Both the position numbers and the translations under genes were made by a program. The notes beneath the pieces are model-generated. The model had not been told where the DNA came from and searched no databases. It worked only from the letters and a program-made list of their open reading frames with translations. A DNA stretch of 64,000 bases from a virus. Taxonomy: Duplodnaviria > Caudoviricetes. Location: positions 26,206 through 90,205 of the IMG/VR virus record IMGVR_UViG_3300032280_000786; one strand, 5' to 3'. Positions 4,091 through 15,067 of this stretch are shown here, one piece after another. Every line of letters starts with the position of its first letter. Position 1 is the stretch's first letter.

Positions 4091-4579
4091 ATGGAAAATT
4101 TATCTTTAATAGAATTGTACCAAATTAAAAGTCGTTTGATTAAAGAATCAATGATTGAGGAACCATTATGGTTTGAAGTTTTAGAATCAATTAAATCAAT
4201 TGAAGATAAAATATTTGAATCTACATCCGCAACGGGTGGTCCCGTTGTTGGTGGAGGCGGTGGAATGACTGGTAACCCAGTTGATTTAGGTAGAACTCCA
4301 CTTGGTCCTAAATGGGCTTCTGGTGGTGGAGATGATAAAAGTTATATTAATGCACCTTATAACCCAGGTGGTGCTGACAGAATGATGCAAAGAATTCCTG
4401 TGATGAGTAAAGACCACGGACCTAGAACCGGTAAAAAGTCAAGAGAGAAAAAACTTGACATTAAAGCTTTAAAACAAGCTTTGGCTAAGAGAAAGGATTT
4501 TCAAAGACAAGAAGGCGAGAAAAAAGTTATGAACTTTGATAACTTCACTAAAGATGAAATAAATACTATTAAGAAGTAA
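4091..4579 (+). CDS. Hypothetical protein (Gly-rich centre, basic C-terminus)
   Basis: 162-aa ORF with a TATATA-type motif just upstream. Confidence 0.6.
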   Translation: MENLSLIELYQIKSRLIKESMIEEPLWFEVLESIKSIEDKIFESTSATGGPVVGGGGGMTGNPVDLGRTPLGPKWASGGGDDKSYINAPYNPGGADRMMQRIPVMSKDHGPRTGKKSREKKLDIKALKQALAKRKDFQRQEGEKKVMNFDNFTKDEINTIKK

Positions 4580-4746
4580 TGAAGTATATTAAGTTATTTG
4601 AAGACATACATATACACGATAGATGGGAACAACAATCTATCGAAGAACAAGATATAGAAGAATTCGCAGAAACTTTATTTGTAAATCTATTAGATGATGG
4701 ATTCACGGTAGATACTGATCGCAGGAGGTTATATATGGAAATATAA
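4579..4746 (+). CDS. Small protein with MKYIKLFE leader (55 aa, not in the ORF track)
   Basis: ATG overlaps the previous stop. Translates to MKYIKLFEDIHIHDRWEQQSIEEQDIEEFAETLFVNLLDDGFTVDTDRRRLYMEI. Confidence 0.65.
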   Translation: MKYIKLFEDIHIHDRWEQQSIEEQDIEEFAETLFVNLLDDGFTVDTDRRRLYMEI

Positions 4747-4793
4747 ACAAATTGCAAAATAATTTGTATAAATAAAAAAAATAATTCATAAGA

Positions 4794-5342
4794 ATGTTTA
4801 AAACAGAAAAAGTAATAATTATCGGCCCTTCGGGGTCGGGTTAAGGAAAAGATTATTTAATGAGAAAATTAGCAGAGAAAGGTATGAAACCTTGCTTAAA
4901 ATGGACTACAAGACCTATAAGAAAATTTGAAAAACAAGGAGTAAATTATAATTTTGTAAATGAACAATTATTTTTACAAACAATAAATGAAGACAAGTTT
5001 TTATCTTGTCAAAAATTTGAAGTAACTCCTGAAAATTCAGAGCCTCAAACTTGGTACTACGGTATTACACTTGAAGAGTTTCACAATTCGGATATTTTTA
5101 TTATGACACCTGGTGAATTTAGAGATTTACCTGCAGAATTAAGAAAAGGTTGTTGTGTTGTTTATTTGAACATAGACAGAGAAACAAGAGAGAAACGACT
5201 ACATAATAGAAAAGATAAAAATGATTCAATACAACGAAGATTAGATGCAGATGAAGAAGATTTTAAACAAAGTTTTGATTATGATTTAGGAATAACAGAT
5301 CCAGACTTTGGAGCAGATGATGTTTATTCACTAATAGATTAA
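4794..5342 (+). CDS. Guanylate kinase-like P-loop kinase interrupted by an in-frame TAA at 4842-4844
   Basis: ATG 4794 gives MFKTEKVIIIGPSGSG*GKDYLMRK, in frame with the tracked ORF at 4860. The downstream TTRPIRKFE..GVNYNFV, WYYG and ETREKRLHNR..DSIQRRL motifs are GMK-like. Confidence 0.75.
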
Positions 5343-5369
5343 AAAAAGAGAGCAATTGCTCTCTTTTTT
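5342..5369. terminator. Bidirectional intrinsic terminator
   Basis: aaaaaagagagc-aatt-gctctctttttt between convergent genes. Confidence 0.85.
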
Positions 5370-14314: not shown

Positions 14315-15067
14315 ATGAAAAAGAAAATAATTGGTATGTTCGTAATTTACAAGGCAGAATTTCCAAATGGTAAAGTTTATATAGGTAAAAGTAAAAATTT
14401 TAATGATAGAAAATTAAAACATTCGTACAGTCCAAAATATTATAGCACTAAATTAACAAATGCTATAAATAAGTATGGATTCGGATCTATAAATTGGGAG
14501 GTCATTTATGAAACAGATGATATAGATGAACTTAATAAAATGGAAATAGAGTTTATTAAAAAATATGACTCTATTAGACTTGGTTACAATACATCTACTG
14601 GTGGTGATGGTGGTGATACCATTTCAAATAATCCTAGAAAACTGGAAATAATAAAACAACAATTATCTACTAAGGGCAAAGATCCTGACAATTATATTGA
14701 AATATCTAGTATTATATCTGATTCAATTTTAGATGATTATATTAATAATAAGTTATCTATACATTCATTAGTTAGAAAGTATGGTATAACAAAAAATAGA
14801 ATTACTCGATTTCTTAAAGTAAAAGAGATTGAAATTGATAAAGAGAGGTGCAAGTTAACTAATTCAAAGGTATTTGATAGTGACTATATAGATAAAGTAA
14901 TAAAAATGTATAAAGATGGCCTTTTGATAAAAGATATTGCAAGAATAGAAAATAAGACCATAATGGTGATAAGTAGGATATTACACGATTCTGGTGTTAG
15001 AATATCTAAAAGATTTGGTGAGGGTAGAGCAAGTGATGGAAGTAAACCAAGAGAAAAAGAAAAATAA
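14315..15067 (+). mobile_element. Free-standing GIY-YIG homing endonuclease with C-terminal HTH-like repeats
   Basis: VIYKAEFPNGKVYIGKS..F..R...H, AINKYG, E...IKKY.S...GYN. The likely start is the internal Met of MFVIY. Confidence 0.85.

Follow-up and report, generated by a model that had tools for sequence, protein, structure and literature searches.

Does a giant phage whose guanylate kinase gene is interrupted by an in-frame stop codon still make the enzyme and, if so, how does the ribosome get past the stop? The gene lies in a stretch of 64,000 nucleotides, referred to here as the window, which is part of a 90-kb IMG/VR record estimated to hold 27% of its genome. The DNA has a G+C content of 28.7% and uses the standard code; open reading frames of 100 aa or more make up 90% of its length, and 85 of the 99 end in TAA. 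The nearest relatives in GenBank are the uncultured phages LR745206 (635 kb) and LR756502 (642 kb). On the plus strand, to which all coordinates of the gene refer, an ATG at 4794–4796 opens 16 sense codons (4794–4841, MFKTEKVIIIGPSGSG), the last of which is GGT (4839–4841). Read directly from the sequence, this codon is followed by TAA (4842–4844), whose next base is G, and by GGA (4845–4847), which is in frame with an ATG at 4860 and with the stop codon at 5340–5342. The letters around the site, ATC GGC CCT TCG GGG TCG GGT TAA GGA AAA GAT, and the frame that joins ATG 4794, TAA 4842 and GGA AAA GAT were found to be as given in the first-pass annotation, which had proposed that the ribosome hops over the stop. 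The rest of the gene (4848–5342) is intact: it codes for KDYLMRKL...SLID before its own TAA and keeps the TTRPxR...YNF motif of the GMP site. Upstream of the start, at 4767–4774 on the plus strand, stands the motif TATAAATA, which had also been pointed out before. It is kept in all 13 aligned alleles and forms the left edge of the tract common to the window and contig L028. This motif is a putative promoter; it is not enriched in the window, where 26 copies were found and 20 ± 4 were expected.

As written, the gene has no contiguous Walker A motif (GxxGxGK), since TAA 4842 splits it into GPSGSG-stop-GK, and only the skipping of six nucleotides restores it. The motif restored in this way, as claimed at first reading, has the spacing of 200 of the 211 family proteins that we retrieved. 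The remaining 11 are 10 truncated forms and one Gly-to-Trp variant with the same spacing, and a two-residue insertion at the P-loop was seen in none of the 211. Neither an uninterrupted version of the cassette nor a two-residue insertion made of sense codons was present among the cluster representatives. The insert is exactly 6 nt long, its placement being ambiguous (GGTTAA, GTTAAG, TTAAGG or TAAGGA), and it is composed of a stop and a synonymous duplicate of the codon that follows, set between the last Gly and the Lys of Walker A. Gene callers annotate this gene as shortened, namely as a 160-aa protein, named guanylate kinase or unnamed, which begins at the internal Met codon 4860–4862. This Met is conserved, the same residue (FLMRKL) being present in uninterrupted relatives. 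The 160-aa ORF is without the P-loop, as had been stated: its match to Pfam Guanylate_kin (PF00625, cut-off 25.2 bits) begins only at profile position 33 and scores 35.9 bits, while the whole frame, with X at the stop, matches from position 3 with 49.2 bits. The uninterrupted relative P0131, which has 2 differences from the window over the shared 160 aa, matches 19 guanylate kinases in the PDB, the best being 7u5f (E = 2e-8, residues 9–172). To judge from these matches, the gene is a member of the guanylate kinase family with a broken Walker A. A search of the phage's own genome found one guanylate kinase copy in the 90-kb record, and this is the copy which carries '1 TAA' inside. One 160-aa cluster representative, P0026, was rejected as an artefact of a scaffold gap of Ns.

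Exact-protein look-ups, followed by inspection of the DNA, located the identical GGT-TAA-GGA and hairpin in 11 further contigs from at least three studies. The 12 carriers (the window, L025–26, L028–30 and L036–41) come from ENA, JGI and Logan assemblies. ORF variant P0121, which is that of the window, is carried by L025 and L026 from two ENA samples, variant P0134 by L028, L029 and L030 from ENA, JGI and Logan, and variant P0145 by L036–L041 from five samples of another ENA study and from SRR6220867. The window's 160-aa ORF was found on 5 contigs, and other 160-aa variants belong to the same and to neighbouring 90% clusters. In the rest of the gene the carriers represent three kinase backgrounds which are 7–12% apart (33–58 of 486 nt). 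The same study also yielded uninterrupted alleles (L031–L035) whose flanking genes are 98% identical, and the site is therefore a polymorphism in the phage metapopulation. In it, insert alleles are about as frequent as individual uninterrupted alleles, with 3–8 contigs each from several studies. The first-pass annotation had suggested conservation of the insert and the hairpin in related phages as a check, and would have taken relatives without TAAGGA as a sign of an error or a private mutation. Both elements are identical in the three backgrounds, but they are absent from every uninterrupted relative; the 11 contigs that carry TAAGGA base for base tip the balance in favour of the earlier reading. 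Three further 160-aa kinase forms, P0237, P0238 and P0148, start at the same internal Met, and each occurs on 3–4 contigs with lengths up to 400 kb; two of the forms are in a cluster only ~69% identical to the window's kinase. Going by their protein sequences, they may be extra backgrounds that bear the interruption. Their coding DNA was not found in IMG/VR, GenBank phages or GTDB.

How much does this group of phages depend on the gene? All uninterrupted relatives, from 46% to 99% protein identity, have a gapless G-x-S-G-x-G-K-D and read TCG/AGT-GGA/GGT-AAA-GAT, with a single Gly codon at the position of GGT TAA GGA. Twelve distant relatives were found through the neighbouring 239-aa gene (53–64% identity there) and not through the kinase, and beside that gene all 12 have an intact kinase of 46–67% identity. 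Because every one of them keeps an intact copy, the kinase is not dispensable in the clade, and by this distribution it is a core gene. Pairwise dN/dS in the kinase family is 0.08–0.16, a range obtained from relatives 70–88% identical and uninformative on the insert once uninterrupted relatives of 98% identity are known. Branch counts gave 7 synonymous against 4 non-synonymous changes, which are small numbers.

Directly at the site there is a hairpin with a cUUCGg tetraloop (4822–4839, plus strand). The first-pass annotation had already described a UUCG hairpin here; it is longer than was then thought, with 7 bp and -10.9 kcal/mol, and its 3' arm takes in TCG, the codon of the E site, and the first G of GGT, the proposed take-off codon. 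The same stretch of seven uninterrupted alleles gave -1.1 to -7.0 kcal/mol, and the 7-bp hairpin occurs only in insert alleles. No covariation in the hairpin was found among the carriers, in which the cassette is nearly invariant. This conservation reflects the youth of the cassette, whose sequences vary too little to reveal selection on the proposed signals. The P-loop codons, which had been singled out as unusually GC-rich, are indeed scarce in the genome (GGC 2.8%, TCG 2.8% and GGG 2.9% of their families), but their rarity is only partly allele-specific, because GGC, GGG and TCG are also used in the P-loop of uninterrupted close relatives. Nowhere else in the 90-kb record do a hairpin, a stop and an ORF that runs on beyond it occur together; the search returned only antisense or repeat-derived false positives. 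Collagen-like Gly-X-Y repeats (GPVGPTGP...) on the minus strand at G000:C1 3700–7400, outside the window, give rise to strong antisense hairpins and long spurious ORFs. Another hairpin, of -12.8 kcal/mol, lies at window positions 4226–4249 (GCAACGGG TGGT CCCGTTGT) in the glycine-rich part of the ORF at 4091–4579 and has no stop nearby.

Our best reading of the locus, to which we give a little less than an even chance, is a +6 stop-hop from GGU to GGA, aided by the upstream hairpin. From the reading frames, such a hop would be the only route to the canonical protein. The ribosome would reach the site with GGU in the P site and UAA in the A site, and slow termination would give the GC-rich cUUCGg hairpin time to refold behind it. 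As the 3' arm reaches over the codon in the E site and by one base into the take-off codon, refolding would weaken the pairing in the E and P sites and favour forward movement of the mRNA, and the completed hairpin would draw the mRNA onward over a distance close to that of the hop. Peptidyl-tRNA-Gly would leave GGU and re-pair with the landing codon GGA 6 nt downstream, and decoding would restart at AAA 4848, the codon of the Walker A lysine. The product of the hop would be a 180-aa kinase with the canonical GPSGSGKD loop, and ribosomes that terminate would release a peptide of 16 aa. The hop may be inefficient, and perhaps the insert also throttles the level of the kinase.

Several published observations bear on this mechanism. 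With 70S ribosomes, forward (+1) shifting at CUU-UGA is stimulated by hairpins that refold adjacent to the E site (PMC6321510; compare PMC3639245). The hairpin does lie 5' of the stop, which the first-pass annotation had listed as a caveat, but this stimulation weakens the objection. A 5' stem-loop has been proposed to aid forward movement in T4 gene 60 (bioRxiv 10.1101/2022.08.31.505936). In E. coli, hopping over a stop between matched codons is established for synthetic constructs (Weiss 1987, reviewed in PMC5009743); such hops are low-efficiency events (PMC5009743; bioRxiv 10.1101/2022.08.31.505936), and the main review knows no natural in-frame stop-hop, only synthetic constructs (PMC5009743). 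The site itself has synonymous codons on either side of the stop (GGT TAA GGA) and a landing in the zero frame. Against the hop counts the mismatch at the wobble base between the take-off GGU and the landing GGA. The earlier caveat that these two codons are read by different tRNA-Gly species also stands; LR745206 has separate genes for tRNA-Gly(GCC), in one copy, and for tRNA-Gly(UCC), in two. Because the nascent chain is only 16 residues long, a peptide signal of the gene 60 type is not possible and drop-off would be likely. The 90-kb record contains no second such site, which also counts against the hop. On the other side stands the form of the lesion. Random disabling mutations would rarely look like an in-frame codon-stop copy whose exact removal restores the family spacing, and functional recoding is favoured by this form, by the occurrence of the insert in a core gene and in several of its backgrounds, and by the hairpin that is specific to the allele. 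The earlier interpretation is supported in part: the insert is neither an error nor private, sits in a core gene and comes with a hairpin of its own, but it lacks defining features of gene 60. What is shown are the sequence, its occurrence in many assemblies and in three backgrounds, its movement as a short tract, the hairpin and the gene's core status; that ribosomes hop, how efficiently they do so and what the hairpin contributes are what we infer from this evidence.

Could the insert instead simply kill the kinase? A loss-of-function allele, which moves because the end of the gene is a recombination hot spot and which perhaps gives immunity at the target site of a homing endonuclease, is a serious rival, and we regard it as a real if doubtful possibility. 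A stop within Walker A is the simplest null, and the way in which the insert travels also fits. Every pair of the three backgrounds shares an identical tract from -66 to +12 around the TAA (window 4776–4854, 79 nt, plus strand); this minimal cassette consists of the 5' leader, the 16 codons, TAA and GGA AAA GAT. Carriers differ by 0–1 nt over the 60 coding bases up to GAT, the sole change being a synonymous one from AAA to AAG, and the 79-nt segment differs by 26–35% from uninterrupted alleles. When the window is compared with the uninterrupted L031, the 5' part differs at 16 of 54 positions and the 3' part at 17 of 486 (Fisher P 4e-9); for L036 and the uninterrupted L017 the counts are 14 of 54 and 9 of 486 (Fisher P 8e-10). 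The right-hand crossover points differ between backgrounds, at +13 and +77, and there must therefore have been at least two transfers of the stop-containing tract into diverged genomes. Shared tracts that are short (79–143 nt), centred on the insert and variable in their ends are what is expected of conversion around a break. However, two alleles that are both uninterrupted, L031 and L035, also differ at 11 of 57 positions in the 5' end and at 0 of 486 downstream. These comparisons point to the kinase 5' end as a general recombination hot spot at which uninterrupted alleles, too, exchange their ends. Because the 5' end behaves in this way even without the insert, the spread of the tract need not imply selection for it.

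In the immunity variant of the null allele, an endonuclease may cut the conserved DNA that codes for the P-loop, and repair of the break would copy the short tract into sensitive genomes by biased gene conversion. The gene upstream of the kinase varies among relatives (55, 158, 161, 165 or 180 aa), and in LR756502 a GIY-YIG/NUMOD homing-endonuclease gene (L002:721–1524, positions 543467–544270 of LR756502) lies immediately 5' of the uninterrupted kinase, at the place where other relatives have unrelated genes of 55–180 aa; both points speak for this variant. So does a 250-aa ORF in the window's own record (window 14315–15067), whose GIY-YIG domain scores 23.3 bits, just over the cut-off. It is the only one in the 90-kb record, lies 9.5 kb from the kinase and shows a weak identity of 29% over 87 aa, within the catalytic domain, to the endonuclease of LR756502. 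The insert of T4 gene 60 was reported to protect against cutting by MobA (bioRxiv 10.1101/2022.08.31.505936), and we count this for immunity as well. On the other hand, no endonuclease families were found within 3 kb of the kinase in the three insert-bearing backgrounds. More generally, a null allele should be selected against, because the kinase is retained in 12 of 12 distant relatives at a dN/dS of ~0.1; yet insert alleles are about as common as single uninterrupted ones, and a codon-stop-synonymous-codon form with a new stable hairpin would be rare for a random null. Further lesions are lacking in the downstream 160-aa ORF, which is intact in P0121, P0134, P0145 and P0148 (for P0148 in the protein sequence only), but this says little, because the cassette is so young, at most ~1% diverged, that few lesions would be expected. 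Of the two objections raised at first, a pseudogene or an assembly error, the former has kept its weight in the shape of the null allele and the latter has fallen away. That the gene end behaves as a hot spot and that the tract is young are reasons why we keep this rival next to the hop. As an observation on the same region, the 55-aa ORF at window 4579–4746 is the N-terminal remnant of a 161-aa gene which is intact in L031–L033, and ~320–360 nt are missing directly before the kinase leader in the window when it is compared with the intact gene.

Simple read-through of the stop is improbable in our view. A near-cognate tRNA at the TAA would yield a 182-aa protein with ...GPSGSG-X-GKDYL, in which the shifted loop SGSGXGKD fits the family pattern [GSA]xxGxGKD, and relatives do have S or A at the P-loop's first position (SPSGGGKD, AKSGGGKD). 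A TAA followed by G is also unusual for genuine stops in this genome, where the next base is A or T in 77 of 85 cases and G in 4 of 85. However, none of the 211 family proteins has the two-residue insertion, and read-through would place a bulky residue where the family has S, G or A. Of the three stop codons, UAA is in general read through least efficiently. TAA is moreover the main stop of this phage; the 90-kb record has no tRNA genes, and hence no suppressor, and there is no TAA suppressor among the 58 tRNAs of LR745206. Because TAA is an ordinary stop (it ends 85 of 99 long ORFs) and neither place yielded a suppressor tRNA, an alternative code in which TAA is a sense codon was rejected.

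A functional 160-aa protein made from ATG 4860 is less probable still, and we consider it very unlikely. It would be a non-catalytic nucleotide binder without a P-loop, for which the insert supplies both a stop and, in TAAGGA, a ribosome-binding site. The ORF is predicted by gene callers in all carriers, and TAAGGA, which stands 12 nt before ATG 4860, is similar to the 5' half of a consensus Shine-Dalgarno site. But a Shine-Dalgarno motif precedes only 6 of 99 genes, compared with 8% in background sequence, so the phage does not use such motifs, and a role of TAAGGA in restart at ATG 4860 was rejected as unlikely. The ATG is also no new start, being the conserved internal Met of all uninterrupted relatives, and a product that lacks the central beta-1 strand and the P-loop would be unlikely to fold. 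Finally, an artefact of sequencing or assembly, or a private mutation of a single genome, has a negligible chance: the 6 nt are absent from all uninterrupted relatives, and scans of IMG/VR, JGI metagenome contigs and GTDB genomes with exact and degenerate site patterns found no match outside records close to the window, which were left out of them, but these scans also missed the JGI contig L029, which fits the pattern, and error and single-genome mutation are excluded because the insert is identical, and present in three backgrounds, in 12 contigs which differ in assembler, sample and study.

How does the proposed hop relate to recoding that is already known? The parallel with T4 gene 60 that was drawn at the outset holds for several features: both are phage genes in which a Gly take-off codon is directly followed by a stop, with a Gly landing codon and a cUUCGg-capped hairpin at the site, and in both the insert interrupts a highly conserved coding stretch and belongs to a short tract that moves horizontally between related genomes. 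The differences are considerable. Gene 60 has a coding gap of 50 nt (the MobA cassette) in place of 6 nt, and matched GGA/GGA codons where the kinase has GGU (4839–4841) and GGA (4845–4847). Its take-off codon lies within the 5' arm of a hairpin that forms in the A site, whereas the kinase hairpin is 5' of the codon and includes only its first base, in the 3' arm. A KKYK-type nascent-peptide signal acts from ~14–30 residues upstream in gene 60, while only 16 residues precede the stop here; a homing endonuclease (MobA or a replacement) is linked there, and none is present within 3 kb here. The two sites have no sequence homology. Since four defining features of gene 60 were tested and none was found, namely matched codons, hairpin position, peptide signal and linked endonuclease, the resemblance is one of function and not of membership. 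Could the whole history nevertheless be of the gene 60 kind? The mobile 79-nt tract, with its stop, duplicated Gly codon and driver hairpin, would then be a natural minimal 6-nt stop-hop cassette in the most conserved DNA of a core kinase. It would have been spread by break-induced gene conversion through the destroyed target of a homing endonuclease, as in T4 gene 60, would be skipped by the ribosome so that the enzyme is kept, and would be one member of a broader, as yet unrecognised class of short hops that hairpins drive in giant phages of fresh water. We think this full scenario unlikely.

Other systems are closer in one respect or another. By analogy, the site resembles a synthetic stop-hop in its geometry and a prfB-type or hairpin-stimulated shifty stop in its architecture. 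The stop-hops engineered in E. coli (Weiss et al. 1987; PMC5009743) likewise consist of a codon, a stop and a similar codon, spend nine bases on one amino acid and land in the zero frame; they are, however, low-efficiency constructs, whereas the kinase site is natural, occurs in several phage lineages and has an adjacent hairpin. Shifty stops of the prfB type, driven by an internal Shine-Dalgarno sequence or by a refolding hairpin (PMC6321510, PMC3639245), share with it a stop in the A site, a duplex that ends at the E-site codon and a favoured forward move. In contrast, they move by +1 to an overlapping codon, while a move of +6 to a non-overlapping codon is needed here, and the kinase site has an mRNA hairpin as its duplex, the phage making no use of Shine-Dalgarno pairing. 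The byp elements of Magnusiomyces capitatus mitochondria are also short inserts in conserved genes that are skipped in translation and spread like small mobile elements, but they are 27–55 nt long, mitochondrial and many per genome, with an unused sense codon in the A site, unlike the single 6-nt site with a stop described here. The 'savior indel' of the herpesvirus thymidine kinase (PMC5009743) is similar in that a disabling indel in a viral nucleotide kinase could be tolerated through rare recoding which supplies a little enzyme; there, however, the event is a frameshift at a G-run under drug selection, and no selective agent is known here.

Whichever reading is right, the site has consequences. 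As reviews know synthetic cases only (PMC5009743), the +6 hop at the kinase would be a candidate for a natural in-frame stop-hop. The site is simple, comprising nine bases and one hairpin, the activity of its product hinges on the exact rejoining of Walker A, and the uninterrupted alleles of the same study are natural controls. If the hop is true, translational bypassing is possible without the elaborate signals of gene 60, a non-overlapping forward move can be driven by an upstream refolding hairpin, and gene callers systematically mis-annotate such genes as truncated. If it is false, a null allele of a core gene is making its way through diverged genomes of giant phages in the form of a short conversion tract; this would point to a selfish or defence-related driver.

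Some minor observations concern the surrounding genomes. Among its 58 tRNA genes LR745206 has two odd ones: the first, tRNA-like and located at 407364–407437 (in L048), has an anticodon loop of eight members (ARAGORN 'gtag'), and the second, at 419836–419923, has a two-base anticodon call. Behind the kinase of the window, between it and the convergent 239-aa gene, lies a palindromic, terminator-like hairpin, AAAAAAGAGAGCAATTGCTCTCTTTTTT (5343–5369). The palindrome recurs with 86–94% identity at no fewer than 4 other places in the 90-kb record and looks like a shared bidirectional terminator motif.
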